NCBI GenBank assembly: GCA_965277715.1
Contig: OZ255836.1
Span: 608,001-672,000, forward strand
Length of the DNA stretch: 64,000 nucleotides
Source of the DNA: Gammaproteobacteria bacterium
GTDB lineage: Bacteria > Pseudomonadota > Gammaproteobacteria > JBCCGL01
Direction: 5' to 3'
Position numbers and translations under genes: made by a program. Below the pieces are notes generated by a model. The model did no database searches. It was not told the DNA's origin and was given only the letters and a program-made list of their open reading frames with translations. How positions within the stretch are numbered: the first letter of the stretch is position 1; each line of letters begins with the position of its first letter. Positions 4,700-52,070 of the stretch are shown piece after piece.

Positions 4700-6262
4700 C
4701 TATGGTAAGGGGAAAACCACCCGAAACCCCAGGTCTTCACTGGTGTAATTCGGTGGGGCTTCACCAGATTGGTTGATCTGTCCCCCTTCTTCTGGCATAA
4801 AAAAACTCCCGCCCTTTATCACTAACGTAAACGCGCTGCCGTGTAAAACGGTGGTGTTGGTCCATTCAGCCACATTGCCGGCAAACCCTAAAATACTGTC
4901 TTTACTCGGATCATTAGAGGCATCGACGGCCAGTGCTTGCCAATGTGCTTGAGGCGTGTTGCGGTCAATCGCACGCTGTGGTTGGTATGTGTTGCCATAG
5001 GGGAAACGGGTGAGTGCTGCGCCCGCCAGTGCCTGCCATTCATTAGCTGAGGGTAAGCGCCCGCCTGCCCACTTGGCAAATGCCCAGGCGCTCCACCAGC
5101 TTATCCGGGTGACCGGGTGGTGTGGCTGATCGATGATGGTGGGCCAGTTTTCAGGCCTATGCCCGATGGTGTGCGGTTGTCTGGCGTGGTTGTAGAACCC
5201 CAGTTTTACCAAAGGGTCGCGTAGAAACTGTGCGTACAGGGCGCGGGTGACTTCGTGGCGCATAACGTGCAAGTTTAACGCTATCGGCTCGATGGCAAAG
5301 TGTTCGATAACGCGCAGTTGTTGATCGTCCAGGTGGCGCAACAGTGCGGGAATTTTCGCCTCGGCGGGCGCGCCTATTTTGAGGGCTTGCCTGTCAATGC
5401 TGACTACCTGTGCAGCGTCACCCCAGGGAATGTGAGGTATATGCATATATGCCTCCGGGCCACGGTCGTAAACACAGCGAAAGCCGGTGTAGTGCGAGCG
5501 GTAATCGGCGGGGGCAGGGCGGCGGATGCTGTTGAGCGCGTGCAGTGCCACCGGGCGGTTGTAGGCATTGCCGCCCATCAGTACAGGTTCATTTTGCAGG
5601 GTCGTCCATTCGAGCAGGCTGCTGCCCATATCGTGAATACCCTCGGGGGTATCGGTATCGGGAGAGGCGGCACAGTGTTTGGGGATATTCAGCGATGGGT
5701 CTCTGTGTTGCCAGGGGCTGTCGATAAACACATTACCCCAGGGGTAGAGCCGTTGTTGTGCACCGCTGGCGATGGCTTCAAATTCCTGACTGGTGGGCAG
5801 CCGACCACCGGCAGCGTGGCAATAGGCCCAGGCGTCGTAAAAACTCAACCCGCCCGCCGGTACGGTTAATTGCCCCAGCAGTGTGTGATCTTGGCTTTGG
5901 CTTTTGTACATCCACCCTTCAGGTTGTTTGGGGTGGGGCAGTGGGGGATTAACCTGTACGGCGTACCAGTGGCTGAAGCGGCGAAAATCCCCCTGGCTGA
6001 CCTCACAACGATCGACCCATAACTCGCCCAGCGAGAAGTTTTCTGGTTCGCGCCTGAATTGGGTCAGTAGTGCGGTGTTTGAAGTTAAGGCAGACAGGTT
6101 GTTTTGCAGTACGCTATCCAGCGGGTGTGCGGCAACCGTGTGTTGATAGTGTACCGTGACGGTATCCAAATCGCTGGGTGGCAGGTATATCCAGCGCCAC
6201 CAGAGCGCAGCCAACAGGCCGATGATGGCCGTTATCAGTGTAATAGATAACGTGCGTTTCAT
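4700..6262 (-). CDS. Membrane-anchored protein with two tandem FGE-sulfatase (SUMF1/EgtB/PvdO-like) domains
   Basis: N-terminal TM; GGRLPTSQEFE..YPWG..LLEW..TGFRCV and GGRLPSANEWQ..FPYG..GNVAEW..KGGSF..LGFRVV. Confidence 0.85.
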   Translation of the reverse strand: MKRTLSITLITAIIGLLAALWWRWIYLPPSDLDTVTVHYQHTVAAHPLDSVLQNNLSALTSNTALLTQFRREPENFSLGELWVDRCEVSQGDFRRFSHWYAVQVNPPLPHPKQPEGWMYKSQSQDHTLLGQLTVPAGGLSFYDAWAYCHAAGGRLPTSQEFEAIASGAQQRLYPWGNVFIDSPWQHRDPSLNIPKHCAASPDTDTPEGIHDMGSSLLEWTTLQNEPVLMGGNAYNRPVALHALNSIRRPAPADYRSHYTGFRCVYDRGPEAYMHIPHIPWGDAAQVVSIDRQALKIGAPAEAKIPALLRHLDDQQLRVIEHFAIEPIALNLHVMRHEVTRALYAQFLRDPLVKLGFYNHARQPHTIGHRPENWPTIIDQPHHPVTRISWWSAWAFAKWAGGRLPSANEWQALAGAALTRFPYGNTYQPQRAIDRNTPQAHWQALAVDASNDPSKDSILGFAGNVAEWTNTTVLHGSAFTLVIKGGSFFMPEEGGQINQSGEAPPNYTSEDLGFRVVFPLP

Positions 6263-8079
6263 TGGCGTTGCCGCCTAACGCGTAAGCGGTAACGAAATAG
6301 CAGTAACACAATGCCCACAAATGCCAATAACCATACCCAGGCCAACAGGCGGTGACCGTGGTCGCGTTCGCTGAGTAAGGGATTTGCCACAGGCAGTTTG
6401 TTGAGGCGCAGTTGGTTGACACCGGCGCTCAATAGTAATTGCTGACCTTCCAGGCCCGCGTGCACAAATCCCAGGCTGATGTCGTTTAGTTGTGCATCGA
6501 ATACGGCGATTGGGCGCCACTGGGTGTGGGGGTGGGTAAATTCATCCGGGTGTATCAGTAGCGTATAGCCTTTGGGTACTTCCAGTCGTTCGCCTTTGAA
6601 CAGGCTGGGGTAGAGCCGCAGCAGAAACCCCGGCTGCACTTGTTCTGCCTGGCTGAGTGGTTGTAGCCAGGGGGTGGGTTGATGCAGTTCAAGCGTTGCC
6701 GATGGCAATACTGTGTTGGTATCCAGCCGCAATTGGTTCTGGCTGGCGGTGGTTGTCAGTAAGGTGTCTTTTAGAGGGGGGTGTCTGTGCGCAATCTGTG
6801 CGCTAATTTGCTGGGCGAGCCGGTCAACCAGATTGCGGTGCGGGAAGTTTGTGACGTTATCGGTATCGAGTGCGTAGAAAGCGAGCCACTCTGGGGCGCT
6901 GGGTAGTTGCAGGGTTTTTTCAGTGCGTGCTACCTCCAGCAGTTTTAGCAGGTAGGTGATGATGGTTTGTCTGTACTGCAATGGCGTCAGTTCAATACGC
7001 TGGCTGTTTTGATCGGCAGAATTGGTTTCGAGTAATTCGGCATTGGGAACATTCAGGCGCAGGGTGCCCTGGACGTTTTCGGTACGGCGGTCGCCGCCTT
7101 TTTGCCCATTGCCACCAGACCAGGGGCCGCCAGACCTGGGGCCGCCCGACCCCGCCACCATGCCGATAAGTGCTTCAAACAAGGTGCCGGGTTTTTGCTG
7201 TCCGTTATTGGGGGCTTGTGGCTCACCGCTATTGAAAAAAGGGCTGGATGGCCTTTTGCCAAATGCTGATTGGGCCGCCTCAAAGCGGGGGGGAAGCAAT
7301 GTATCGTATTGCAGGGTGTCGAGTGTTTGTGCATCGGCCTGTTGTGTCGATGCCAGAAATTGTGCGGTAGCTGAGCTCTTGCTATCGCCTGGTGGATTGT
7401 CGTTCGTCTGTTCTGCCCCGGTCTGCCCCGATCCGGGTTGTCCTGCCTGTTGGTCGGCTGTGTCATTGTCGGTGTCAGTCGGTTGCTCCGGTGGTTGGTC
7501 ATCGTGTTGTTCGAAAGCATTATTTTTAAGCGGGGGAACACTTTCCCCCAGATAGTGCCAGTGGTGAACGTTTACATTGTTTTCCTGGAGAATGGCCATC
7601 GTTAGGTAGTACTCGCTGACGGCGTGTACATCCAGGCGGATATGGTTGCGTTGATCGGTGTCGAGTGAACGCAGGTAGGTGTCCAGGGCATTATCCTGGC
7701 GCAGTAGCGCACGGCGGTATATGCGTGTGTTGGTATTGAAAATACGGATATGGCCGTTGAGCATTTCAATGACCGGGTAGCGCATCGGGTTGCAGTCGTG
7801 CTCGATGGTGCAGGCGTGGTAGTCGTGCAATTGCGCAGGCGGGCTTGAGGGCAGGTCGTTGTAGACCAGTGTGGTCGATAACTGCCGTGAGAGCAGGGTG
7901 GTGATATTGGTGCTCTTTTCAAGCTCTTCCTGGGCGTGCTGTTCCTGTACGCTCAGGGTGACGGCGATCAGGATTAAAATAACAGCGACACTGTTGGCGA
8001 GAATATCGGCGAGTGCCACGCCACCCAATCCGAGCAGGGAGGTGGAACGCTTTCTGCGGTGTGTGGGTGACGATGCCAT
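6259..8079 (-). CDS. Hypothetical membrane protein: ExbD/TolR-like N-terminal helix and domain, long low-complexity linker, C-terminal TM
   Basis: Start re-called at ATG 8079 (TAATG overlap with upstream stop); TM GGVALADILANSVAVILILIAVTL; D/Q/P/G-rich linker; C-terminal LLAWVWLLAFVGIVLLLFRYRLRVRRQRQ. Confidence 0.75.
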   Translation of the reverse strand: MASSPTHRRKRSTSLLGLGGVALADILANSVAVILILIAVTLSVQEQHAQEELEKSTNITTLLSRQLSTTLVYNDLPSSPPAQLHDYHACTIEHDCNPMRYPVIEMLNGHIRIFNTNTRIYRRALLRQDNALDTYLRSLDTDQRNHIRLDVHAVSEYYLTMAILQENNVNVHHWHYLGESVPPLKNNAFEQHDDQPPEQPTDTDNDTADQQAGQPGSGQTGAEQTNDNPPGDSKSSATAQFLASTQQADAQTLDTLQYDTLLPPRFEAAQSAFGKRPSSPFFNSGEPQAPNNGQQKPGTLFEALIGMVAGSGGPRSGGPWSGGNGQKGGDRRTENVQGTLRLNVPNAELLETNSADQNSQRIELTPLQYRQTIITYLLKLLEVARTEKTLQLPSAPEWLAFYALDTDNVTNFPHRNLVDRLAQQISAQIAHRHPPLKDTLLTTTASQNQLRLDTNTVLPSATLELHQPTPWLQPLSQAEQVQPGFLLRLYPSLFKGERLEVPKGYTLLIHPDEFTHPHTQWRPIAVFDAQLNDISLGFVHAGLEGQQLLLSAGVNQLRLNKLPVANPLLSERDHGHRLLAWVWLLAFVGIVLLLFRYRLRVRRQRQ

Positions 8080-8606
8080 TAAGGGGGATCGATTGTGCGT
8101 TTGATACGGGCGGGCAGGGATTGCAGGTGCACTGTGGAGAGCAGGTCGCGATTGGCGATAATCCAGCCGATGCTGATGGCGTGTTGTGGCCAGCGCTGTA
8201 GCAGGCAATTGCGCGAGAGGGCCATAGTGCCAACCCCGCCTTCGGTAATTGCGAAGATCAGTTGTTGTTTTTCCGTCGTGTAAATTTTTTCGACGTAACG
8301 CATAAAGGCGCTGCCAGCCTGGCATATTTCGGCGCGGGGTATTTGCTCGTTGGTTTCGATAATGCGCAGTTTGTCGGGGAAACTGATAACCACCAGGCCC
8401 TCGCTGCCATCCTGCCAGGACACCTGGTATTTTGCGCCCTCGGTGGAGCGTTCCAGCATGGCGCGTATATCGCTGGAAACGATAAGATTAATCAGGATGA
8501 AAATAATAATCAGCAACGCCAGCGTACTGCCAAATACCTCCACCATGGGGGCGTCCAGTTCGTTGTCTGCGCGCTGCGGGCGCGAGTGTCTGAGTCGCTT
8601 TGGCAT
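8079..8606 (-). CDS. ExbD/TolR-like single-pass membrane protein
   Basis: Basic N-terminus, ELDAPMVEVFGSTLALLIIIFILINL helix, small periplasmic domain; directly downstream of the MotA/TolQ/ExbB-family gene. Confidence 0.7.
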   Translation of the reverse strand: MPKRLRHSRPQRADNELDAPMVEVFGSTLALLIIIFILINLIVSSDIRAMLERSTEGAKYQVSWQDGSEGLVVISFPDKLRIIETNEQIPRAEICQAGSAFMRYVEKIYTTEKQQLIFAITEGGVGTMALSRNCLLQRWPQHAISIGWIIANRDLLSTVHLQSLPARIKRTIDPP

Positions 8607-8631
8607 AGTCAATCGGCTGGGTACTTAATGT

Positions 8632-8659
8632 GTGTCGGTAAAGCCGTGTCGGTAAAGCC
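8632..8659. repeat. 14-bp tandem duplication GTGTCGGTAAAGCC x2
   Basis: Exact direct repeat in the spacer between the ExbB-like and ExbD-like genes. Confidence 0.85.
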
Positions 8660-9687
8660 TAGGCCAGCGTCTCTTCCAGCAATAATAGCTGGCGCTCTTC
8701 CCAGCGGTATAACAGGGTTTGCAGCAAACCCAGGACAACCGAGAGCGATAGCGCGATCAGCGTGGTGTCAAATGCGATGCCCAGTGGTGACAGCGCCGAG
8801 GCCAGTAGCTGGCTAAATTCTGCGCTGTTGTTGTTGAGGATAGCGCTCAAGCCCTCCGTTGCCAGGGAGATACCCAGCACGGTGCCAATAAAACCGAAAA
8901 TGGGAATGCTCCAGTTGATATAGCGTGGCAGCGAATAGAATGACTCGAACTGCTGCCAGATAATGGCGAATAACTCGTCGCGTTTTTTTACCGACTTACC
9001 TGCACGTTGGCGCGCCACCCGTAGTGGTGAATCCTCATCGTCGGTGTGTTTTAGCGCGTGCGCCATCAGCAGCCACTTACCGAGCAATAGCAAGGTGCCC
9101 CAAAAAAACAGAGTGAGAGTAATCGGGGGAATAACCCCGCGATCGAGCAGCTTAGGCGTGATAACGTCGAACAGCGGGTATTCACCAATTTGCAGCCACG
9201 TCATCAACAGGTCACAAAAAATCAGGCCAATGCAAAAGGCAATCGCTATGGCGGGGCCTTTGAGCGTATCTTCAACCAGTTCATTGAGGCTGGGTGATGC
9301 ACTGGGGGAAGTACTGTGCAGGTGCAGCAACTGGTTTGACGCGGCGAGAATCAACGCCAGAATCAGCACTAACAAATGTGTGGACAGATCGGTGTCCTGC
9401 CCCGTGAGCAGTGAGCGCCACAGATCGGCTGAAGCGATCAACACCAGCAGAAACAAGGCACCGATATTAGCCAGCATGGCCCATCGATAAAACAGACTGC
9501 GCCATACGCACAACAGGCTGGGCAAACCGGCCATCCCCCCGAGTAGCAACCACAGTGGAGACCACCCCCGTGCGATATACAACAGAGCAAAACACAATAC
9601 CGGGATCAGTGCACATAAAACCATTGCGGTTTTTGAGAGTAAATTTATGGAAGCGGAGGATTGTTGAGTATTTTGAGTTATCGGCAT
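8659..9687 (-). CDS. MotA/TolQ/ExbB proton channel family protein with extra N-terminal TM helices
   Basis: YINWSIPIFGFIGTVLGIS and LGIAFDTTLIALSLSVVL helices; RBS AGAGGA. Confidence 0.88.
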   Translation of the reverse strand: MPITQNTQQSSASINLLSKTAMVLCALIPVLCFALLYIARGWSPLWLLLGGMAGLPSLLCVWRSLFYRWAMLANIGALFLLVLIASADLWRSLLTGQDTDLSTHLLVLILALILAASNQLLHLHSTSPSASPSLNELVEDTLKGPAIAIAFCIGLIFCDLLMTWLQIGEYPLFDVITPKLLDRGVIPPITLTLFFWGTLLLLGKWLLMAHALKHTDDEDSPLRVARQRAGKSVKKRDELFAIIWQQFESFYSLPRYINWSIPIFGFIGTVLGISLATEGLSAILNNNSAEFSQLLASALSPLGIAFDTTLIALSLSVVLGLLQTLLYRWEERQLLLLEETLA

Positions 9688-10276: not shown

Positions 10277-11152
10277 TCACCCATGAACAACAAAATTATC
10301 GGCGCTTAATTCTACTTCATCGACACCGAGATAGGCCTCAATGGTCAGCATTGTACGGCTGATCTCAGCACCGACTTCCCGTGCGTGAAGCACCTCCTGG
10401 GTTATACCTTCACTCCAGCCGTAAATACTGTGAATCAACTCCTCGTCTGTGCGCACGTTATGTTGGATATCGTGCAGAATACGTGCAAATTCGCTCAATG
10501 TAGGCATAACGCCGATTTTGCTAAACAGTGCATGAAGTGCATTGATCACTGCCTGTATATCCGTTGCCAGATCGAAATCCTCGGCCCGGTAGGGTTGGCT
10601 GCTCATCGACGTTGCATTCACCCACACGCGAAAGCTGTGCTTCTGCAAGGAGTGATACAGTGGTTCTTCAGAAATCAGAAACATCAACAGCTTATCGCGA
10701 TTGGCAAAGAACTGCGTATCACTGGAATGCCACTCACCGCTGCGAATAAACTGATAAAGCTGAATATGCCTGGCAAATTGTGCTGCCTGCAATTGATCGA
10801 GGATAACAACCGTCTGCTCGCCTTCGCTAAACGCACAGGCGTCACTCATAACGTGATCGAATGCCGAAACAGGTGTTGGTGTCGTTAACGGCTCACCGTC
10901 ATCGTCGCTGACTGCTGGTGGGGTAGGTGGTATTGGTTGTTCATCACTAAAATCGTGATACAGCACATGCTGATATTCGAGCGAGGTCGCCAGGGCATTG
11001 GCGAAAGCGGTTTTACGCCGACCAGGGGCACCTTCAATATTGAGGCAGTGAATGTCGTCGCTGCGGCTGTTAAGCAGGCACTTGATGTGGTAGCTATAGT
11101 CGTCGTTGGATTCATAGCCATTGGCGGCCATTTTTTCAAGCAGGGTTGTCAT
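10277..11152 (-). CDS. Hypothetical protein with degenerate AAA+/MoxR-like P-loop
   Basis: EGAPGRRKTAFA (Walker A-like) and VVILDQLQ (Walker B-like, E to Q). Confidence 0.65.
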   Translation of the reverse strand: MTTLLEKMAANGYESNDDYSYHIKCLLNSRSDDIHCLNIEGAPGRRKTAFANALATSLEYQHVLYHDFSDEQPIPPTPPAVSDDDGEPLTTPTPVSAFDHVMSDACAFSEGEQTVVILDQLQAAQFARHIQLYQFIRSGEWHSSDTQFFANRDKLLMFLISEEPLYHSLQKHSFRVWVNATSMSSQPYRAEDFDLATDIQAVINALHALFSKIGVMPTLSEFARILHDIQHNVRTDEELIHSIYGWSEGITQEVLHAREVGAEISRTMLTIEAYLGVDEVELSADNFVVHG

Positions 11153-27089: not shown

Positions 27090-28703
27090 GTGCAGCCACA
27101 AGTATTATTTAATTTAGAGACTTTACCCACTATAACGGCGGTGCCAGTCGCGCCGCAGTCGGTGGTGCCTGGCGCGCATTTTTCAAGCCAACTCCAGGTA
27201 ATAATCGATCAGCAAACGGCTGATTTAAGTGAAGTTTCCCCAGATTCTCCCACGAATATTGATAATGTGGCCAACAGTCAGCGCCCCATTTTTCTATCTC
27301 AAGTTGCAAAGGAAATACCGCGACAATCAACATTGCCTACGGAGGGAGGTGGGCAGCACCCACCATTATCCTCTACGTTGATACAGCCTCGACATGGAAG
27401 TGATTTGCCGCCGCAAGATCAGGATTTGCCTGGTTCTGTATTTTCTGGCGTAACCGTTTCGCCACATTTGAATGCGACGCTGGCGCAAGTCAAGCTAGAG
27501 AGGGTAGGCCCAGAGCCGGTTGTTCTAGAAAGAGTGGGGGCAGGTGTAAAAGAAGGGCGGCAGAGCCCACTCGATCATCGCTTGCTCGCTGAAACCGCTT
27601 TTTATCAGCCGACAACGAATATTGCTGCGGATGGTGACGGCCTGCCCATAGCTCAAGAGGTGGCGGTAAAACCGTCGAATGTGCCGCTGGAGGGCACTCA
27701 CTCGTTGGTTCTACAACAGAGAGTACCGCAGGTTGTGCAAATGCGTAGCACAACAATTAGGCATGATAGTGTGAGTGGCAATGAGCCTGCCGTAACAACG
27801 GGCCTTCATGTGCCGGATGTACAGGTACGATTAGAGCAACTTCAACAACCGCGACAAACGACACAAGAGGCAATGCAGCCTGTTTATCAAAAACCAATTG
27901 AAACACCGCCTGTTGTGTCGCGCCAACTCGATGATATACCACAGAGAATACCGCAGGTTGTGCAAACGCGTAGCACAGCAATTAGGCGTGATAATGTGAG
28001 TGGCAATGAGCCTGCCGTAACAACGGGCTTTCGTGCGCCGGGTGTACAGGTACGATCAGAGCAACTTCAACAACCGCGACAAACGACACAAGCGGCAACA
28101 CCGCCTATTGTGTTGCGCCAACTTAATGATATGCCACGTGTGCAAAAAACCATTGATACAACTGCATCGGTAGAAATTGATACCAGTGGGTTTGAGGCGG
28201 GCAACAATACACTGTCGCCACATCGTGGCCTGGCCAGTACCTCTCAGATACCACAACTATCGTTAGGTAGCCGCCTGGAGAGTGTCGATTGGTCGAATAA
28301 TTTTGCCGACAAGGTTCAGCAGATTTTAAAGGGGGATTTTAAGCAGGCGGAAATTCGTCTGGATCCGCCACACCTTGGCAAGATTGATGTGCGGATTGAT
28401 CTTAACAGTGACCGCACAGCGATTATTTTTCATGCCGATCAAGCGGTGGTACGCGAGGCGATTGATCATTCGGCTACGCGTTTGCGCGAGCAATTGGCAA
28501 CGGCGGGCTTTGGTAATATTGAGTTGGGTATTTCTTCAGGTGATGCCCAGAAAAATCAGCGGGGTCGGCGTGATGGAAATGGCGGGGGTGCAGGGCAGTA
28601 TGCTGTTGATGATGAGGGTGTCGATGGGGATATTGTCAGTGATTCACAGGTGGCCCGGTTGGCATTAAATGAAAGGGCTGGGTCGGTTAATGTGTACGCA
28701 TAA
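27090..28703 (+). CDS. fliK: Flagellar hook-length control protein FliK-like
   Basis: C-terminal AEIRLDPPHLGKIDV..VREAID..RLRE..VNVYA; long P/Q/T-rich N-terminal region. Confidence 0.85.
   Translation: MQPQVLFNLETLPTITAVPVAPQSVVPGAHFSSQLQVIIDQQTADLSEVSPDSPTNIDNVANSQRPIFLSQVAKEIPRQSTLPTEGGGQHPPLSSTLIQPRHGSDLPPQDQDLPGSVFSGVTVSPHLNATLAQVKLERVGPEPVVLERVGAGVKEGRQSPLDHRLLAETAFYQPTTNIAADGDGLPIAQEVAVKPSNVPLEGTHSLVLQQRVPQVVQMRSTTIRHDSVSGNEPAVTTGLHVPDVQVRLEQLQQPRQTTQEAMQPVYQKPIETPPVVSRQLDDIPQRIPQVVQTRSTAIRRDNVSGNEPAVTTGFRAPGVQVRSEQLQQPRQTTQAATPPIVLRQLNDMPRVQKTIDTTASVEIDTSGFEAGNNTLSPHRGLASTSQIPQLSLGSRLESVDWSNNFADKVQQILKGDFKQAEIRLDPPHLGKIDVRIDLNSDRTAIIFHADQAVVREAIDHSATRLREQLATAGFGNIELGISSGDAQKNQRGRRDGNGGGAGQYAVDDEGVDGDIVSDSQVARLALNERAGSVNVYA
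27716..28136 (+). repeat. Intragenic tandem duplication in fliK (225-bp unit, second copy about 30 bp shorter)
   Basis: QRVPQVVQMRSTTIRHDSVSGNEPAVTTG.. at 27716 and QRIPQVVQTRSTAIRRDNVSGNEPAVTTG.. at 27941. Confidence 0.9.
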
Positions 28704-35918: not shown

Positions 35919-36533
35919 ATGAGCGAAAAAGAAACCCCTCACCATACACACGATGCACCATTGTCTGATATCGAACAGCGAGTCAAAGACCTGGAGCAAT
36001 TGCTGATTGAAAAAGGCTTGATCGATCCGGCCGCATTGGATGAATTAATCGATACTTATGAACACCGCGTGGGGCCGCGCAATGGTGCCGCTGTGGTGGC
36101 AAAAGCCTGGACAGATGCCCGTTACAAGGCGCGGCTACTGGAAAATGCAACCGCAGCCATTGCTGAGCTTGGCTATACCGGTCGACAGGGTGAGCATATG
36201 GTGGTGGTCGAAAACACGCCACAAGTGCATAACCTAGTGGTTTGTACCTTGTGCTCCTGCTACCCGTGGCCTGTGCTGGGGTTGCCGCCAACCTGGTATA
36301 AGGCCTCCAGTTATCGGGCGCGTGCCGTCAGCGAGCCACGCGCTGTCATGGCAGAATTTGGCTGTTATTTGGACGATGGTATTGAGGTGCGGGTATGGGA
36401 CTCAACCGCCGAGGTACGCTATCTGGTGTTGCCTATGCGGCCACCAGGCACGGAGCACATGGATGTAGCGGCACTGGCTGAGTTGGTGACGCGTGATAGC
36501 ATGATCGGCGTCACCCAGGTTGCGATACCGTGA
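35919..36533 (+). CDS. nthA: Nitrile hydratase alpha subunit, cobalt type
   Basis: [10 protein letters not shown] metal site (Thr/Tyr pattern of Co-type enzymes). Confidence 0.97.
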
Positions 36534-37165
36534 ACGGTGCGCACGATTTAGGGGGTATGCACGGTTTTGGCCCCATTGATATCGAAAGCGGTCACGCGCC
36601 GTTCCACCATAAATGGGAGGAACGCGTCTTTGCTATGACACTGGCCTGTGGGTTTCTTGGTCAATGGAATATCGACCAATCCCGTTTTGCCCGAGAGCGG
36701 ATGGAGCCGGGTGAGTATTTGCAAACCAGCTATTATGAGCACTGGCTGTATGGCCTGGAAACCCTATTGGTAGAGCGCGGTTTGCTGCCCGTTGATAAAA
36801 CGCAAGACAGCCGGGCAGTACCCGCCGGGCGGGTGGCGGGAATTTTGGCCAGCGGCGGCCCATCGTATTGTGCCAGCCAGACACCGCCTCAATTTAACGT
36901 GGGTGATACGGTTACCATCGGCAACCAACACCCGGCAGGGCACACGCGTGCGCCACGTTTTGTGCGGGGCAGGCAGGGGACTATCACACGCTACCACGGC
37001 AGCCATGTATTGCCGGATATCAGCAGCCAGCCGCAAGGGATTAAAAAGGGAGCACATTTATACAATATACGCTTCGAGGCGGATGCACTGTGGGGTGATG
37101 CAGGGGATAGCAACAGCGCCGTATACGTCGATGTCTTTGAGCCTTATATCGAGGAGCGTCTATGA
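36530..37165 (+). CDS. nthB: Nitrile hydratase beta subunit
   Basis: [28 protein letters not shown]. Confidence 0.95.
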
Positions 37166-42262: not shown

Positions 42263-43048
42263 TTACATGGGGATTTTAACCACTCCTTTACCTGTCACGA
42301 TGCCTTCCACAATACGCCCCGAGCTGGCATTTTTTACCCGTACCGGGCTATTGGCGGTGGCATTGGCCAGCGCTTTGCCTTTCATGCGTACCTGAATACC
42401 CGCAACTGTGGCCAGTAGGGTTACCTGTTGACCACGGTTAACGAGGTAGGGGTGTTTGAGAAGTGCCGGTGTAACCACTTGCCCGTGCCCGATGGTGCGG
42501 GTGACTTGCATGCCCTTTAGTTGTTTTACTTGAGTAAAGTAGCCGGAGCGCAAGGTTGAGAGTCTGCGGGTTTCAAAATCAATATCGTCACTGCTCAGGG
42601 TTTGGTTGCGCAGGAGTGGTTTATTGGTGATGAGTATATTGACGAACATGTCGATGCTTGCAGTGACGTAGATGTTCCAGGGTTTGGCTGTTTGGCAACT
42701 GACACTCAAAAATGTACGGCCCGGTTTGAACTGGTCGTTTACAAAGCTGATGGTCAAGGGTTGACCACAACGGCGCAGGCGCAGGCGGGTGTCTATTTTC
42801 CCCACAGTGGAGGTCACCGGGTAGGTACTACCAAAATCGTATGTGTCAATAAATTGTTGTATTTGCTGGCGAATGTTGTTGATCGATTGGTAAGGTGTGT
42901 CGGCAAATACAAAAGTAGGGAGCAGGAGTGCCGCTAATAGCCATAAGGTTTTCCGCCTTGCCTTAACTTTGTGGGCAATGTTTTCCAACGCCCGTGTTTT
43001 GGACTGCCTTGTCGCGCTGAATCGCTGCCTGTATATCGTGATCATCAT
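42263..43048 (-). CDS. flgA: Flagellar P-ring formation chaperone FlgA
   Basis: DTRLRLRRC, LVNRGQQV, MKGKAL, VRVKNASSGRIV; start uncertain. Confidence 0.92.
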   Translation of the reverse strand: MMITIYRQRFSATRQSKTRALENIAHKVKARRKTLWLLAALLLPTFVFADTPYQSINNIRQQIQQFIDTYDFGSTYPVTSTVGKIDTRLRLRRCGQPLTISFVNDQFKPGRTFLSVSCQTAKPWNIYVTASIDMFVNILITNKPLLRNQTLSSDDIDFETRRLSTLRSGYFTQVKQLKGMQVTRTIGHGQVVTPALLKHPYLVNRGQQVTLLATVAGIQVRMKGKALANATANSPVRVKNASSGRIVEGIVTGKGVVKIPM

Positions 43049-43063
43049 AATGTCCGATACCAA

Positions 43064-43080
43064 AGCAATCTATACGCCAG
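43064..43080 (-). promoter_or_regulatory. Sigma54 promoter of flgA
   Basis: CTGGCGTATAGATTGCT on the minus strand, GG-N10-GC. Confidence 0.7.
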
Positions 43081-43089
43081 TATTTAGGT

Positions 43090-43116
43090 TAAAGCATTTA
43101 ACCGGGCGTCCGCTAT
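43090..43116 (+). promoter_or_regulatory. Putative sigma28 promoter of cheV
   Basis: TAAA-N15-TCCGCTAT. Confidence 0.5.
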
Positions 43117-43154
43117 AGGCAAAGGTGTTTTTTGAATAAACCGGGAGTGGGGTT

Positions 43155-44105
43155 ATGACAGGTTTTATCGCAGCAGTGGATGCGAGAACGCAACTTGCCG
43201 GCCAGAACCGTATGGAGTTGTTGTTGTTTCGCCTGCGGGGTCATCGACGCTTTGGTATTAATGTGTTTAAGGTCCGGGAGGTTATCCAGTGCCCCCGGTT
43301 AACGGTTGTGCCGCAGGCTAATCATGTTGTCCGTGGTGTTGCCAATATTCGTGGCAAAACTATTTCGGTTATTGATCTCGGTGTTGCGATTGGTATGCCA
43401 CCTATTGAACATACAGCGGATGCTTTTCTGGTGATTACCGAATACAACCGCCATATACAGGGGTTTTTGGTGGGGTCGGTAGACAGTATTGTCAACCACA
43501 ATTGGGAGCAGATTTTGTCGCCGCCGTCTGGCACATCTACGCAAGGTTATTTGATCGCGGTTACGCATGTAGGTGAAGAGTTGGTGGGTATTCTCGATGT
43601 GGAGCGTGTGCTGGCTGAGTTAATGGGCAGTGAGGTCGAAGTATCGGAGGCATTGCGCAAAGCACATGCTATCGGTGACCAGGCGAAAAAACTGGTGTTG
43701 ATCGTCGATGATTCGGTTGTGGCACGCAATCAGGTCAAACGCACGGTTGAGCAGTTGGGTGGTGATACGGTAGTCGCCTGCGATGGCCGGGAAGCCTGGG
43801 GTATGCTCACGCGTTGGGCCGAGCAGGGCAGCGAAGAGTTTGAGCAGTTGGCGCTGATTGTGTCTGATATTGAGATGCCGCAGATGGATGGCTACACCTT
43901 GACGACAAAAATTCGTGAACACCCGGACCTCAAACATTTTGGTGTGATGCTGCATACCTCAATGAGTGGTGGGTTTAACGAATCCATGATTGAAAAAGTG
44001 GGGGCAGATGCCTTTATACCCAAATTTGACCCCGAGGAGTTAAGCCGGACTTTGTTTGAGAATATGAACAAACGGCATGTACCCACAGCTACTGTGGTCG
44101 CCTGA
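43155..44105 (+). CDS. cheV: Chemotaxis protein CheV
   Basis: NRMELLLFRL, FGINVFKVREV (CheW domain) plus REC domain SDIEMPQMDGY. Confidence 0.96.
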   Translation: MTGFIAAVDARTQLAGQNRMELLLFRLRGHRRFGINVFKVREVIQCPRLTVVPQANHVVRGVANIRGKTISVIDLGVAIGMPPIEHTADAFLVITEYNRHIQGFLVGSVDSIVNHNWEQILSPPSGTSTQGYLIAVTHVGEELVGILDVERVLAELMGSEVEVSEALRKAHAIGDQAKKLVLIVDDSVVARNQVKRTVEQLGGDTVVACDGREAWGMLTRWAEQGSEEFEQLALIVSDIEMPQMDGYTLTTKIREHPDLKHFGVMLHTSMSGGFNESMIEKVGADAFIPKFDPEELSRTLFENMNKRHVPTATVVA

Positions 44106-44314
44106 TTCGTTTAGCTTAATCTGCCGTTGGATTTTAGTCGGCAGGGCGTGCAGCGGTTTGCCGATTTACGGCAAGTATTGTCCTGAGAAAAGGGTTGTGA
44201 CGGCTCCCTTATCGTGGTGCTTTTAGCGCGGCGTTATTTTAGCGCGGCATAAGGTAATGTATTTGTAGCGGGTTTTACTGTCGGCAATGCATTTTTGCGT
44301 ATTTTAATACGGAG

Positions 44315-44330
44315 TGGCACGGCTACTGCT
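44315..44330 (+). promoter_or_regulatory. Sigma54 promoter of the flgB operon
   Basis: TGGCACGGCTACTGCT, GG-N10-GC. Confidence 0.8.
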
Positions 44331-44366
44331 TAGTGTTCACCACGACCAATCGTGGAGCGGTACACA

Positions 44367-44771
44367 GTGCAGCAAATACTCGACAAAGCAATGGGCATAC
44401 ACGATGATGCACTGCGCCTTAGAGCTTACCGCTCAAACATTATCGCCTCTAATATCGCCAATGTGGATACACCGCGCTATAAAGCTAAGGATATTGATTT
44501 TAAACGCGTTTTAAGTCGGCAGGTCACCCCCGGTGGTGTCGACCCGGTGGCTATCGGTACCACTAACGCCCGCCATATCAGTATTAAACAACCGTTATTA
44601 AGTGCTGAGCAACAGTACCGCAATCCCCTACAGGCGTCGCTGGATGGCAACACCGTCGACGCGCACGTCGAGTACAGCCAGTTCACCCAAAACACCATCC
44701 AATATCAGTCGAGCCTGCAATTTTTGAGTGGCCGTTTCAAGGGCTTACAGAAAGCGATAAAAGGCGAATAA
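44367..44771 (+). CDS. flgB: Flagellar basal body rod protein FlgB
   Basis: IASNIANVDTPRYKAKD, DGNTVD; GTG 44367 after GGAG. Confidence 0.96.
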   Translation: MQQILDKAMGIHDDALRLRAYRSNIIASNIANVDTPRYKAKDIDFKRVLSRQVTPGGVDPVAIGTTNARHISIKQPLLSAEQQYRNPLQASLDGNTVDAHVEYSQFTQNTIQYQSSLQFLSGRFKGLQKAIKGE

Positions 44772-44773
44772 GT

Positions 44774-45181
44774 ATGTCTCTGATGCACAATTTTGATGTG
44801 GCGGGCAGTGCGATGAGCGCGCAATCGCTGCGCTTGAATATCACTACCAGCAATATGGCGAATGCCGACACGATCAGTGCCGACAGGGAATCTGCCTACC
44901 GGGCGCGCAGCCCGGTATTCAGTTCTATGTTAATCAACCGGGCGCAAGAGTCGGTGGGGGTGGAGATGCTGGGTGTCATCGAAAGCCAACGACCCGTGAC
45001 GGCGCGCCATTCGCCGGGGCACCCACTCGCTGATGCCGATGGCAATGTCTATTCCTCAAACGTCAATGTGATTGAGGAGATGGTCAATATGATCTCTGCT
45101 TCACGCAGTTATCAGAGCAATATCGAAGTGCTCAATACCTCTAAACAATTGTTGATTCGAACGCTGAGTCTGGGGCAATAA
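44774..45181 (+). CDS. flgC: Flagellar basal body rod protein FlgC
   Basis: SNMANAD, PGHPLAD, EMVNMISASRSYQSN. Confidence 0.96.
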   Translation: MSLMHNFDVAGSAMSAQSLRLNITTSNMANADTISADRESAYRARSPVFSSMLINRAQESVGVEMLGVIESQRPVTARHSPGHPLADADGNVYSSNVNVIEEMVNMISASRSYQSNIEVLNTSKQLLIRTLSLGQ

Positions 45182-45254
45182 ACCAGCCTTAATCTGTCAA
45201 TTAAATACTGCTAATCAGGGGCTGACCTACTGTGGCCTGGTGTGGAAAGAAACC

Positions 45255-45935
45255 ATGAATATTAATGAAACCAATGGCACGAGTATTTTTGAGCAGCTTA
45301 ATCTGGCTCAACAGACCGCCAATGACAGTAATAGCAGCGAGCTGGGTCAAACGGACTTTCTTCAGCTAATGACCACGCAATTGCAAAATCAGGATCCGTT
45401 TTCACCGCTGGAAAACGGTGAGTTTATTGGTCAGTTAGCCCAGTTTGGCACCGTTTCCGGTATTGAGACATTGCAGCAGTCGTTTGAGAGCTTTGCCGGT
45501 GCATTGCAGTCCAACCGGGCGCTTGAGGCATCGGTCATGGTAGGGCGCTCGGTCCTGGTGCCCGGTGCCACAGCGGCGCTGGCGCAAGGCGGCACGCTCA
45601 GCGGTGGGGTCAGCCTGCCCGCAGCGTCTGATAATGTTGTGGTCAAGGTGCACAACACAAGTGGTGAACTGGTCGCGACGCGCAACCTCAATGGTCAGGC
45701 GGCGGGCATTGTCCGGTTTACATGGGATGGTCTCAATGACGGCGGCGACCCGGTGGTGGCCGGTAATTACCAGATCCAGGCCGAAGCACAGATTGGTAAT
45801 GAGGTTGAGCAGCTTGGCACGTTTGTTTCCGGCAATGTCGATAGCGTGACACTGGGGGGCAGTGCCGGTGAGTTCACCTTGCACGTGGCGGGCATTGGCG
45901 ATGTGCGTATCGATGATGTTGTACAGATTAACTAA
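45255..45935 (+). CDS. flgD: Flagellar hook capping protein FlgD
   Basis: FLQLMTTQLQNQDPFSP. Confidence 0.95.
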   Translation: MNINETNGTSIFEQLNLAQQTANDSNSSELGQTDFLQLMTTQLQNQDPFSPLENGEFIGQLAQFGTVSGIETLQQSFESFAGALQSNRALEASVMVGRSVLVPGATAALAQGGTLSGGVSLPAASDNVVVKVHNTSGELVATRNLNGQAAGIVRFTWDGLNDGGDPVVAGNYQIQAEAQIGNEVEQLGTFVSGNVDSVTLGGSAGEFTLHVAGIGDVRIDDVVQIN

Positions 45936-45965
45936 ACCTAAAACCTTAGCAGAGAGGAATTAACT

Positions 45966-47231
45966 ATGTCATTTGCAATCGCTTTGAGCGGTCTTAACGC
46001 GGCCAATGCTGAGTTGTCGGTCACCAGTAATAATATTGCCAATGTCGGCACCGTTGGGTTTAAAGGATCGCGGGCGGAGTTTGCTGATGTTTATTCAGTC
46101 AATCAGTTCAGCACATCGAGAACCTCGATTGGTTCGGGGGCGCTGTTGAGTCAGGTGCGGCAGTTGTTTACCCAGGGCAGCCTGGAGTATTCAGAGAATA
46201 GCCTGGATCTGGCGGTCAATGGGCAGGGTTTTTTTGTGACCTCGACAGACCGCAATACATTCAATCCCTCCTATACACGGGCCGGGGCATTTGGGGTCGA
46301 TGCACAAGGTTATGTCACCAATCCCCAGGGGCAGTTCTTACAGGTATTTCCAGTGGATACAACGACTGGCAATGCCACCTCCACAAGTGCCTCTGCTGCG
46401 CGGGCGTTACAGGTGCCGGATTCTTTTGGACCACCCAATCCGACGTCCAATATAGGGGTTGGGGTCAATTTGCCCGCAACGGCAACCTCACTCGACCCGG
46501 CGTTATTTAACAGTGCGAATGCCAGCACTTATACCAATACCACCTCGACGACGATTTTTGACTCTCTAGGCACATCACACACCCTGCAGACGTTCTTCAT
46601 CAAATCGAATGCGGCGGCCAATACCTGGGAGACACGCACGCTTATCGATGGCAATGCCATCACGCCGGCTGCGGGTGCAGATGAAACACTGGTATTTAAT
46701 CCCAGCGGTGTTTTCCAAACGCCAGCGGGCGGTACCGTACAGTATGCCCCCAGCCCTTTGGCCAATGGTGCCAGCCCACTCAGTATCACGGTCGATTACA
46801 CCCCCGCTGCGGGTACAGATTCAACCCAGTTCTCATCCGGTTTTCTGGTGTCATCGTTGTTGCAGGACGGTGCCGGTACGGGCCGTTTGAATGGTTTGGA
46901 AGTCGGTGATAATGGTTTGGTACGGGGCAACTACACCAACGGTGAGGCGCGATCACTAGGGCGCATTATTATCTCTGATTTTACCAATGCGCAGGGTCTG
47001 CGGCAGGTGGGTAACACTATGTGGCGTGAGACATCGGCCTCTGGTCAGGCATTGATCGGTGAGGCCTCCACAGGCCGCTTTGGTTCGGTACAGTCCGGTG
47101 CAGTGGAGACCTCTAATGTAAAGCTCACGAATGAATTGGTGAAGCTGATTACCGCGCAGCGCAATTTTCAGGCCAGTGCCAAGGCGATCGAGACTTCAAA
47201 CACTGTCACTCAAACCGTTATCAATATCTAA
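45966..47231 (+). CDS. flgE: Flagellar hook protein FlgE
   Basis: SNNIANVGTVGFKGSR, ELVKLITAQRNFQA. Confidence 0.96.
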   Translation: MSFAIALSGLNAANAELSVTSNNIANVGTVGFKGSRAEFADVYSVNQFSTSRTSIGSGALLSQVRQLFTQGSLEYSENSLDLAVNGQGFFVTSTDRNTFNPSYTRAGAFGVDAQGYVTNPQGQFLQVFPVDTTTGNATSTSASAARALQVPDSFGPPNPTSNIGVGVNLPATATSLDPALFNSANASTYTNTTSTTIFDSLGTSHTLQTFFIKSNAAANTWETRTLIDGNAITPAAGADETLVFNPSGVFQTPAGGTVQYAPSPLANGASPLSITVDYTPAAGTDSTQFSSGFLVSSLLQDGAGTGRLNGLEVGDNGLVRGNYTNGEARSLGRIIISDFTNAQGLRQVGNTMWRETSASGQALIGEASTGRFGSVQSGAVETSNVKLTNELVKLITAQRNFQASAKAIETSNTVTQTVINI

Positions 47232-47263
47232 CGTGGTTGCATTGGACGCAGTGGAGTTGACAC

Positions 47264-48004
47264 GTGGATAAGCTGCTGTACACGGCAATGACGGGTGCTA
47301 AAAACGTACTGTTTGCGCAAAGCACTAACGCCAATAACCTGGCCAATGTGAACACTTACGGGTTTAAGGCGGATCTGGACTTTTTTGTCTCGGAGCCAGT
47401 GTACGGCCCTGGACACCCGACGCGGGTGTACGCCGAGGATGCCCGCGCCGGGTTTAACACTGCCGCTGGCAGCCTGATCCAGACCGGATACCCACTGGAC
47501 ATCGGTATTACCGGTGAGGGGTGGATCGGTGTGCAGGCAGACGACGGCAGTGTGGCTTACACCCGGCGCGGTGACCTGCGCATCGATGCCTCCGGGCTAT
47601 TGCTCAATGGTGAGGGCCGCCTGGTATTAGGTGACAGTGGTCCCATCACTGTTCCCCCCAGTGAATCGTTGATTGTGGGGCGCGATGGCACTATCAGTAT
47701 TCGCCCCCTGGGGGCCGGTGCCAATGAGCTGGCAAATATCGACCGGGTGTTGCTGGTCAACCCGCCGGAGCAGGATATCGTTAAGGGTAATGATGGTTTG
47801 TACCGGCTGAAAAGCGGCGAGCAGGCAGAGCCGGATGCGTTTGTCCAGGTGACATCCGGGGCTATTGAGGCGAGCAATGTCAATTCAGTTGAAGCCCTGG
47901 TCAATATGATTGAGTACGGGCGCAATTTCGAGTCGCAGATACGCTTTTTTCAGGTGGCCGAGGACATGGACGCACAATCGGCACGCCTGATGAGCCTGAC
48001 ATAA
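47264..48004 (+). CDS. flgF: Flagellar basal body rod protein FlgF
   Basis: MDKLLYTAMTGA, ANNLANVNT. Confidence 0.95.
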   Translation: MDKLLYTAMTGAKNVLFAQSTNANNLANVNTYGFKADLDFFVSEPVYGPGHPTRVYAEDARAGFNTAAGSLIQTGYPLDIGITGEGWIGVQADDGSVAYTRRGDLRIDASGLLLNGEGRLVLGDSGPITVPPSESLIVGRDGTISIRPLGAGANELANIDRVLLVNPPEQDIVKGNDGLYRLKSGEQAEPDAFVQVTSGAIEASNVNSVEALVNMIEYGRNFESQIRFFQVAEDMDAQSARLMSLT

Positions 48005-48088
48005 ACCGTGTAACGCAGGTTAAAGCACGGGCCAATAATGACAAGCTAATAATGACAACTAGAGTGACAAAATGAACCAGGTGACAAA

Positions 48089-48874
48089 ATGAATCCGGCA
48101 CTGTGGATTGCCAAGACCGGCCTCGACGCACAGCAAACGCGGATAGGGGTTATTTCCCATAACCTGGCAAATGTCAGCACGACAGGCTACAAGCGCGAGC
48201 GCGCAGTCTTTGAAGATCTTTTTTACCAGAATATACGCCAGCCCGGTGCGCAGACATCGCAAAACACGCTACTGCCCTCGGGGTTGACGCTGGGCACCGG
48301 GGTGCGCGTTGTCGCCACTGAAAAGCTACACACGCAGGGCAATGTGTTGCAAACCCAGAACTCGCTTGATCTCGCCGTCAATGGCCGGGGCTTTTTCCAG
48401 GTTCTGCTGCCAGACGGCAATATCGCCTACACCCGCGATGGCAGTTTTAATCTCGATGCACAGGGCGGGATGGTGACATCCAACGGCTATGCGCTGCAAC
48501 CGGCTATCACGGTGCCCACTGGCACGCAAAGCCTCGAAGTCGGCGGTGATGGGGTGGTCACGGCCTTACTTGATGGGGCAACCGCACCCACGGCGGTAGG
48601 CAATTTAACCCTGGTCGATTTTATCAACCCGGTCGGTTTGCTGCCGGTTGGTGAGAACCTCTACCAGGCGTCGGTCGCCAGTGGCGCTGCCACCACCGGC
48701 ACCCCAGGGGCCGCCGGTTTTGGCGCTATCCGCCAGGGCTTTTTGGAAACCTCCAACGTCAATATTGTCGAGGAGCTGGTCAGCATGATTGAGACACAGC
48801 GGGCTTATGAAATGAATTCCAAGGTGATTTCCACTACCGACGATATGTTGCAATACCTGAACAATAACGTTTAG
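48089..48874 (+). CDS. flgG: Flagellar basal body rod protein FlgG
   Basis: [22 protein letters not shown]. Confidence 0.97.
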
Positions 48875-48887
48875 AGGCCAGATCAGT

Positions 48888-49619
48888 ATGTTTAATCTCA
48901 ATGTGTTGTGTGATTTTGCTGGTATGCCTTTGCGGTGTTTGCTGTGGCGTGCCGGGTTATTGTCCATATTATCGCTCGGCGCTGCCTGCTCGCAGATAAT
49001 CCCGGCGGTGGAGCCTGACCCTGACTACGCGGCGACTGATCCACTGCCACCCACACCGGCGCTTGAGTACCAGGGCGGGGCAATTTATCAAGCGGAGACG
49101 GCACAGGCCCTGTTTCGCGACGGGCGCACCTACCGGGTGGGGGATATTCTCACCATCAACCTGGCCGAGAGGACAGACGCCAGAACGCTCTCCTCGACCA
49201 CCACCGCCAAGGACGATACGATTGGGCTAACGGTGGGTAATCTGTTCGGGGTGATACCGACCGATGGCGATCGTGCCATCGGCAATACAACCAGCGCTGC
49301 CGAGCGAAGTTTTACCGGCAGCGGCAACAGCAGCCAGAGTAACAGGCTGACAGGTGATTTGACGGTAATGGTCTCGCAGGTATTGGCCAATGGCAATTTG
49401 ATGGTGCGCGGCGAGAAAATTGTTTCCATCAATCAGGGCACTGAATATATACGCCTCTCAGGTGTTGTGCGCCAAAGTGATATTGCGCCTGACAATACCG
49501 TGTCATCCACCCGGGTTGCCAATGCGCGGGTTTCCTACGGGGGCGGTGGGGCATTGGCCGACGCCAATGCCGCTGGCTGGTTGTCGCGGTTCTTTAGCAG
49601 CGAATTCTGGCCTTTCTGA
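48888..49619 (+). CDS. flgH: Flagellar L-ring protein FlgH
   Basis: Lipobox-like LGAAC, VGDILTI, GWLSRFF..WPF; start may be ATG 48924. Confidence 0.95.
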
Positions 49620-50755
49620 TGCCATTATATAGTGCCAAAAACCGGGTATTGCGCCGTTTATTGATGGTTGTTTGCGCCGTGCTGAGCGTGTCACTGGCCG
49701 GGCTTGCCAACGCCGAGCGTATCAAAGACCTCGCCTCTATCGCGGGGGTGCGCAGTAACCAGCTCCTGGGCTATGGCCTGGTGGTCGGCCTTAATGGCAC
49801 GGGTGATTCGGCGGCGCAGACGCGCTTCACTGTGCAGAGCCTGCGCGCTATGTTGTCAAAATACGGTATTTCGATACCGCCGAATGTGACCCCTGGGGTG
49901 GATAATATTGCCGCCGTTATGGTGCACGCCGACCTCCCGGCGTTTGCCAAGCCCGGCCAGCAGATCGATATCACGGCTTCATCGTTGGGGGATGCCGACA
50001 GCCTGCGGGGCGGCACATTGTTGATGACCCCATTAAAAGGGATCGACGGTAAGACCTATGCATTGGCGCAGGGTAACCTGGTCGTCGGTGGCTTTGGTGT
50101 GAATGCGGGTGATGGGTCGAGTATTACCGTCAATGTGCCCAGCGTTGGGCGCATTCCCAATGGCGCCACAGTAGAGCGTGCGGTCCCTAACCCCTTTGCC
50201 GAAGGCGGCTCGATTTTGCTTAATCTGCACACCCCTGATTTCACCACAGCCAAGCACCTAAGCGACCAGATCAATCACGTTATCGGCCCGAATACGGCGC
50301 GTGCCATCGATTCGGTATCGATTGAAGTGGGCGCCCCCGTGGCGACTGATCAACGGGTCGGCTTTGTCTCGTTTCTGGAGAATATGCAGGTGGAGCCGGG
50401 CGAGGCGGCGGCTAAAGTCATCATCAACTCGCGCACGGGCACCATTGTTATTGGCAGTCATGTGCGGGTGGCACCGGCGGCCGTGACCCACGGTAGCCTA
50501 ACCGTGAGTATCACCGCCAATAATACGGTGAGCCAACCGAACCCACTGGCTGAAGGCGAGACCGTCGAGGTGCAAAATAATGATATTGAAGTGGCTCAGG
50601 AGAGTAGCCGCATGTTTCTGTTTGATGCCGGTGTGACACTGAGCGAAATCGTCAGTGCGGTCAATCAGGTGGGGGCCGCTCCCGGTGATCTGGTGGCGAT
50701 TCTGGAGGCCTTAAAGCAGGTCGGTGCACTGCGTGCGCAGTTGATTGTGATTTAA
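49619..50755 (+). CDS. flgI: Flagellar P-ring protein FlgI
   Basis: [23 protein letters not shown]. Confidence 0.97.
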
Positions 50756-50777
50756 CTCCGGCAATCTGCTGAATGAT

Positions 50778-52058: not shown

Positions 52059-52070
52059 GGGCTGCGCGCT

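Follow-up and report, generated by a model that had tools for sequence, protein, structure and literature searches.

Ion-driven motors of the 5:2 type drive several envelope systems of bacteria, and they are thought to step by alternation of two equivalent acidic axle helices. AglR-AglQ-AglS of Myxococcus xanthus is modelled as AglR5QS, a 5:1:1 complex with a heterodimer of unlike axle subunits, one with a longer linker (PMC11761067), and the Asp is retained in AglQ as well as in AglS (PMC9389320). In addition, tolQ-like genes accompanied by heterologous partner pairs, tolR-like or TPH-vWA, have been predicted (Williams-Jones et al. 2025, PMC12204202). Meanwhile, PorK, an FGE-fold protein without catalytic cysteines, acts as a docking hub for the PorLM 5:2 motor (PMC12421860). 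Here we describe a four-gene operon in a 64,000-nucleotide stretch (the window) of contig OZ255836.1, positions 608,001 to 672,000, from the Gammaproteobacteria bacterium assembly GCA_965277715.1. The operon encodes a MotA/ExbB/TolQ-type ring subunit (gene 1), two unlike predicted axle subunits (genes 2 and 3) and a tandem FGE-fold protein (gene 4). What is new is this FGE-partnered, asymmetric-axle variant; TolQ-like motors with unlike axle pairs were already predicted in the 2025 paper.

The initial annotation proposed an undescribed motor of four co-oriented genes, the last three overlapping. We found all four open reading frames (ORFs) on the minus strand between 4700 and 9687, and the overlaps TAATG at 8079 and ATGA at 6259-6262 are both in the sequence. 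The two channel motifs claimed for gene 1, PIFGFIGTVLG and LGIAFDTTLIAL, are there as well, and so are the extra N-terminal membrane helices. Fold search placed the gene 1 core in the ExbB/TolQ/ZorA type, with ZorA among the nearest folds. The three-helix channel core and the pore Thr residues of 5:2 ion-driven motors are present, and T269, D307, T308 and T309 are invariant in 118/118 aligned homologues. The protein ends with the core at residue 342 and has no ZorA-like cytoplasmic tail. It fell below the cut-off of Pfam MotA_ExbB (PF01618; E 5.6e-4, 20.1 versus 22.9 bits), though 9 of 14 gene 1 relatives in genomes passed it. For genes 1 and 3, a Foldseek search of PDB structures returned nothing at E<=0.001, and sequence searches of genes 1-3 against solved structures gave nothing useful. 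In a quick tree of 113 core segments, rooted at the midpoint and not read for a donor, gene 1 and canonical ExbB/TolQ lay on opposite sides of a long branch (support 100). Homologue searches were confined to length windows, and fused or split forms outside them lie beyond the counts given here. One apparent natural fusion of genes 1 and 2 (P0183) resembled a frameshifted read-through and was set aside.

As annotated, genes 2 and 3 each open with a basic stretch and a transmembrane (TM) helix bearing an acid, E23 in gene 2 and D25 in gene 3. Both thus have the trans-pore helix with a conserved Asp/Glu by which 5:2 motors are recognised. The two acids differ in their conservation. D25, together with N29, is found in 89/89 gene 3 homologues; E23 is kept in 110 of 117 gene 2 homologues (C95 in 110, C134 in 115) and was lost once, in a single subclade of the quick tree (7 loci, support 86). 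Judged from these residues, the predicted axle is asymmetric, with an invariant gene 3 Asp and a gene 2 Glu that can be lost.

The N-terminal domain of gene 3 (residues 58-178) has the ExbD/TolR-like fold proposed for it, with TolR and ExbD top-ranked in the fold searches. For gene 2, the putative ExbD-like assignment comes through paralogy with the gene 3 N-domain (hhalign prob 82.8, E 9.4e-6). Gene 2 aligned with canonical ExbD/TolR over the TM helix only (hhalign, E 0.002); its Atlas matches were unnamed clusters, the nearest named one having ExbD in 10% of members (score 0.76) and serving as a lead only. Structure modelling weakly supports a pairing of gene 2 with gene 3: the pair scored 0.58 against 0.00 for the best control, the runs shared at least 33% of contacts, and the partner pLDDT (predicted local confidence) was at least 62. 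Of 157 solved pairs, 116 attained the mark used for such predictions, as did 2 of 215 mismatched pairs; those that attained it with a score of 0.60 or less were just 18 of the 157 and both mismatches.

Gene 3 has two features beyond the initial annotation, a second, C-terminal TM helix (88/89 homologues) and a disordered middle at residues 193-333. The length of this linker is 110-187 residues (median 140) in the 89 homologues, and P263 near its mid-point is kept in 86 of them. A strand of the form F/M-R-x-x-x-P ends the linker (R341 in 76/89, P345 in 71/89). SxxxH motifs occur in only 2/89 of the C-terminal helices. The C-terminal half gave no usable Atlas match and was barely probed by the fold searches, so neither novelty nor absence of relatives is implied. 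The double anchor suggests that axle and transducer are united in one chain, a layout absent from the systems compared below.

Gene 4 is, as had been claimed, a TM-anchored double FGE-fold protein, with two FGE-sulfatase stretches in Pfam (E 1.5e-38) that share 26% identity. Across 20 aligned homologues, neither domain has a Cys after the GG(N/S) motif, which we take to be the place of the catalytic Cys pair (after GGS) in active FGE. Missing catalytic cysteines mark inactivity in FGE-fold proteins (PMC12421860). The FGE fold of gene 4 is most likely non-enzymatic. In addition, the C148/C263 pair of domain 1 is invariant, which fits a structural disulfide. The anchor contains neither a lipobox (0/20) nor SxxxH (0/20). 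Solved relatives found by profile include FGE, SUMF2, EgtB and PorK (PorK at E 1.8e-10), and the score against the GldK hidden Markov model (TIGR03525) was 21.7 versus a cut-off of 350 bits. PorK is the closest functional analogy that we would offer for gene 4. In one locus (L003, 13160-15862), a 901-amino-acid (aa) protein that weakly matches fibronectin type III stands in the position of gene 4, which suggests that this load module is swappable.

The four genes are co-conserved, as the initial annotation required of a unit. Of the 31 loci where gene 1 matched strongly, 22 keep the order, or 21 of 30 without the L015/L124 duplicate, and this sharing exceeds chance. Seven of the remaining loci are cut by contig ends. 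The two true exceptions are L003, with its different fourth gene, and G128, where gene 1 stands alone; searches of G128 for genes 1, 2 and 4 found all three, scattered over contig C1 (at 347, 1,120 and 1,174 kb). Neighbouring genes vary by lineage and are chiefly housekeeping genes. Bactofilin genes lie upstream of gene 1 in one lineage (L004, L005, L013, L118), with an M23 peptidase in L005 too.

Thirteen of 399 sampled gammaproteobacterial genomes had a match at E<1e-70, all of 1.5-2.7 Mb; G041 enters only the weak matches and the denominator of this sample. Ordinary ExbD/TolR genes were also present in 15/16 carriers. Thus, the operon is an additional machine, because its carriers keep the ordinary genes as well. 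The NqrB/RnfD family was found in 14/16 carriers, a count that does not tell Nqr from Rnf. Flagellin was found in 2/16 and PilT in 4/16 carriers, many of them draft genomes; among the small-genome carriers, the counts were 0/14 and 2/14.

The operon is also found in cultured Vibrionaceae, with consecutive accessions for all four genes (MEZ9548885-888 and MFS1440727-730). In Vibrio campbellii the four genes are likewise consecutive (NIY89195-198 and NVK70250-253). A cluster look-up placed gene 1 in Photobacterium leiognathi, and there is gene-level evidence for the cultured V. thalassae and Aliivibrio finisterrensis. Gene 2 was found in two of 401 Vibrionaceae genomes, both with the whole operon. 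These operons sit in inserts of low G+C, 28-39% against mostly 38-49% in their flanks, and no integrase was seen nearby. In the quick tree the Vibrionaceae copies formed one branch (support 100) within the four-gene clade (97). Both Vibrionaceae operons adjoin a diguanylate cyclase gene: in G491 the flanking genes are a sensor-PAS-GGDEF gene and a chitinase, and in G722 a GGDEF-EAL gene and a lipoprotein resembling type II secretion system pilotins.

The gene 1 profile also reaches a wider clade: 76 representatives match it at E<=1e-30, and 1,815 do so at E<=1e-10. Distant loci carry AFDTT or AFNST, usually followed by two partners that are paralogous to each other (hhalign prob 98.3) and show weak similarity to genes 2 and 3 (E 7e-4 and 7e-5). 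The first partner has Ser/Thr instead of the acid in 17 of 26 non-redundant AFDTT loci, versus 0 of 3 scored AFNST loci (few and related rows, called by pattern). Among the second partners listed, the D-x-x-x-N helix of gene 3 is kept. Thus, the asymmetric axle looks like a trait of the clade, since first partners often lose the acid and second partners keep this helix. Tandem partner pairs of both the AFDTT and the AFNST type are seen in sister clades L018-L082, L085 and L098-L114. Around some sister loci (L020, L029, L059, L067, L071) lie Ser/Thr kinase, FHA, vWA, PrsW, GAP1-N2 and kinase-FGE fusion genes, and the L034 group lies beside a secretin and small pilin-sized genes. A divergent form of gene 2 (L068:566-1042, P0433, P0434), with the TM helix PLLEIF, bridges the gene 2 family and the FPFLS partners of the sister clade. 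The sister loci probably belong to the same large clade as the families of PMC12204202.

We propose that the operon encodes a 5:1:1 ion-driven inner-membrane motor that acts on a periplasmic load formed by the gene 3 tail and gene 4, a reading to which we give somewhat better than even chances. Five gene 1 subunits would form the ring, and its pore would hold one gene 2 and one gene 3 helix, with the ExbD/TolR-like domains paired above. Asp25 of gene 3 would be the obligatory ion-binding acid, and the gene 2 Glu would be dispensable. Ion flow would rotate the axle against the ring and so wind or pull the gene 3 linker of about 140 residues. In such a machine, gene 3 would serve as axle and as TonB/TolA-like force transducer in one chain. 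The load would consist of the membrane-tethered C-terminal domain of gene 3 and of gene 4 as a non-enzymatic docking or ligand-binding module, both probably held on the extra helices of gene 1. The most likely target of the work would be a partner in the periplasm or the cell wall, in cells living on surfaces or with a host.

A more specific version is tentative, and we rate it at well under even chances: a one-cylinder, possibly sodium-driven reel. In this version the gene 3 Asp alone would need to carry ions, the AFDTT Asp of the ring (Asp307) making a second axle acid dispensable. The notion that Asp307 makes up for a missing axle acid draws on the small comparison above, 17 of 26 AFDTT loci against 0 of 3 AFNST loci. 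The gene 3 axle, fused in cis to a TonB-like tether, would wind its 140-residue loop and pull a membrane-anchored FGE/lectin module, and marine bacteria would use it for surface or host colonisation. The operon would then be an entry point to the large asymmetric-axle clade of 1,815 representatives. As to the ion, the three pore Thr residues of gene 1 stand at the positions of T158/T185/T186 in the sodium-driven flagellar stator PomAB, matched by motif in what we take to be the PomA context. The same triad occurs in several ordinary ExbB genes of the carrier genomes. It occurs in proton-driven MotA as well and is not diagnostic of sodium (PMC11725901). Sodium coupling of the gene 1 motor is possible on these residues.

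The best surviving alternative, which we nevertheless consider improbable, makes the operon an energiser for an outer-membrane transporter or a secretion channel encoded elsewhere and coupled in trans, with the looped gene 3 linker spanning the periplasm like TonB or TolA. The linker is long enough, and its mid-point Pro and terminal F/M-R-x-x-x-P strand would suit this role. In addition, downstream of the operon come genes for a TPR protein and a TonB-dependent receptor in two loci (L009, L010) and for the pilotin-like lipoprotein in G722, and the secretin stands beside one sister clade (L034). However, such neighbours are not common to different lineages, both ends of gene 3 as well as gene 4 are anchored in the inner membrane, and no TonB/TolA C-terminal domain was detected with Pfam or NCBIfam.

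Defence, one of the outputs suggested by the initial annotation, is less probable still. A sensor akin to Zorya would watch the envelope for phage attack or stress: envelope damage, or a ligand bound by gene 4, would open the motor and alter ion flux. No OmpA-type domain, nuclease or helicase effector accompanies the genes and the ZorA tail is missing, yet ZorA is the sole PADLOC match of gene 1 (E 0.002-0.03). The patchy, low-G+C occurrence in Vibrionaceae (2/401 genomes) and DNA methyltransferase genes within about 5 kb in three loci (L121, L124, L126) would also suit defence. Against this, most loci lie amid housekeeping genes. PADLOC matches at E<=1e-10 were found for just 11 of 135 neighbours at 18 loci (151 neighbours before duplicates and two others were dropped), six of them partial ABC ATPase or methyltransferase matches by our reading, and for 0/14 neighbours tested at two Vibrionaceae loci.

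Gene content and neighbours gave no support to flagellar or pilus motility, nor to defence. A new kind of surface motility, as AglRQS provides in Myxococcus, seems very unlikely to us. The unlike axle pair recalls AglQS, the small-genome carriers lack known motility by their flagellin and PilT counts, and both Vibrionaceae copies adjoin a cyclase gene. However, genes for an adhesin, an outer-membrane track or a cytoplasmic platform do not accompany the operon; the two cyclases align at 29% over 180 aa and are not orthologous beyond the GGDEF domain (n=2), and most of these genomes are drafts. We give equally little credence to a non-rotary ligand-gated channel or signalling scaffold derived from a motor, in which the doubly anchored gene 3 would block sustained rotation: the second anchor, the loss of the second axle acid (one subclade and 17/26 sister-clade loci) and the kinase, FHA and phosphatase genes around sister loci would agree with it, but every pore residue expected of a working 5:2 motor is invariant, and 140 residues of slack linker would permit several turns.

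The 5:1:1 motor, if correct, bears on two questions. The alternation model becomes directly testable in a family with one invariant acid and the other lost (once here, and in most sister-clade loci), and the open question of whether unlike axle pairs such as AglQ/AglS act as heterodimers can be approached. Knockout and purification are feasible now, because the operon occurs in cultured Vibrionaceae, including Vibrio campbellii and other Vibrio strains.

The features are collected in Table 1. The start of gene 3 was set at 8079, where homologues begin at the equivalent position; a 688-aa form starting at 8325, given by the ORF finder, uses an in-frame upstream ATG and was rejected. In the gap between genes 1 and 2, a 14-base unit is repeated head to tail (8632-8659, minus strand). 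The G+C content of the four-gene stretch resembles that of the remaining window. The operon lies between an amino-acid ABC transporter and a group formed by BolA, LemA and an M48 peptidase; a 291-aa P-loop-like protein (10277-11152; weak AAA_16 match, E 0.01, no family at cut-off) lies between BolA and LemA. By eye, ORFs at 27090-28703 and 42263-55174 resemble flagellar hook-length, rod, ring and hook genes, and the window organism appears flagellated, in contrast to the 14 small-genome carriers. ORFs at 35919-37165 resemble nitrile hydratase alpha and beta subunits. A promoter scan was at chance level (4 found, 4.7 expected). The operon had no match on 72,556 plasmids or among viral contigs. 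It was listed for three DNA runs of one study and for no RNA run.

Table 1. Positions of the operon genes and their features in the window, and of genes flanking the Vibrionaceae copies.
Feature	Position	Strand	Basis or remark
Gene 1, MotA/ExbB/TolQ-type ring subunit, 342 aa	8659..9687	minus	ORF; channel core = residues 172-342; residues 1-171 = 4-5 extra membrane helices
Gene 1 pore motifs: T269 (P-x-x-G-F-I-G-T), D307-T308-T309 (AFDTT)	8761..8883	minus	Residue conservation
Gene 2, short ExbD/TolR-like axle subunit, 175 aa	8079..8606	minus	ORF; alternative TTG start at 8612; TM acid E23; conserved C95/C134 pair
Gene 3, long axle subunit, 606 aa	6259..8079	minus	ORF; D25 TM helix, ExbD/TolR-like domain, disordered linker, helical and beta domain, second TM helix, basic tail
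Gene 3 ExbD/TolR-like periplasmic domain, residues about 99-178	7546..7785	minus	Fold searches
Gene 3 disordered Gly/Gln/Pro/acid-rich linker, residues 193-333	7081..7503	minus	pLDDT under 50; conserved mid-point Pro P263
Gene 3 second, C-terminal membrane helix, residues 575-602	6274..6357	minus	Hydropathy; no TolA/TonB SxxxH motif
Gene 4, 520 aa: N-terminal membrane anchor, short stalk, two FGE/C-type-lectin-like domains without catalytic Cys pair	4700..6262	minus	ORF; Pfam PF03781, two stretches
Vibrionaceae flanking genes	L129:15997-17910; L130:6577-9738; L133:5600-5986; L133:11222-13534

The proposal of an undescribed motor is supported. Genes 2-4 fit no described system represented in Pfam, NCBIfam or PADLOC, and a literature search found no description of the operon, with most subscription papers and bioRxiv supplements outside its coverage. 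However, a TolQ-like ring with two unlike axle genes has precedent (PMC11761067, PMC12204202). The absence of TonB, TonB-receptor, TolA/TolB/Pal and OmpA families from the four proteins was borne out in Pfam and NCBIfam at E<=1.

With ExbB-ExbD(-TonB) and TolQ-TolR(-TolA), the operon has in common the fold of the ring subunit and, behind a single TM helix that bears an acid at P-x-x-D/E, a periplasmic domain like that of TolR/ExbD. It differs in its two unlike axle genes, the 4-5 extra N-terminal helices and the invariant ring Asp of AFDTT. Unlike Ton and Tol-Pal, it has no TonB/TolA, SHLS-type helix, receptor or TolB/Pal, and no conserved neighbour. With the motors of PMC12204202 it shares a TolQ-like gene followed by two unlike trans-pore partners; it differs in its tandem FGE protein and in its long axle with two membrane anchors, and it has neither a vWA domain (Pfam at E<=1 showed none for genes 2-4) nor a TPR gene. 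The terms FGE, formylglycine and SUMF1 have 0 occurrences in the text and supplement of that paper.

If genes 2 and 3 do pair, for which support is weak, the operon would share with AglRQS its predicted 5:1:1 make-up and an axle of two unlike subunits, one of them with a longer linker. However, no Glt transducer or outer-membrane genes lie nearby, and the gene 2 acid can be lost whereas AglQ and AglS keep their Asp. Compared with ZorAB, it lacks the long cytoplasmic tail, the OmpA-type domain and ZorC/D/E-type effector genes, none of which is conserved among the neighbours, and genes 2-4 had no PADLOC match. It likewise lacks the OmpA-type domain of PomAB/MotAB, and flagellin was not found in 14 of the 16 carriers searched. 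The type IX secretion motors GldLM/PorLM with GldK/PorK also couple a 5:2 motor to a non-catalytic FGE-fold protein. However, GldL/M are not the family matched by the operon, and PorK forms an outer-membrane lipoprotein ring, whereas the two FGE domains of gene 4 sit behind an uncleaved-type TM anchor that lacks a lipobox. In its way of working the operon would belong with ExbBD, TolQR and AglRQS, yet by its components it stands apart from Ton, Tol-Pal, Zorya, the flagellar stators, the vWA motors and type IX secretion.
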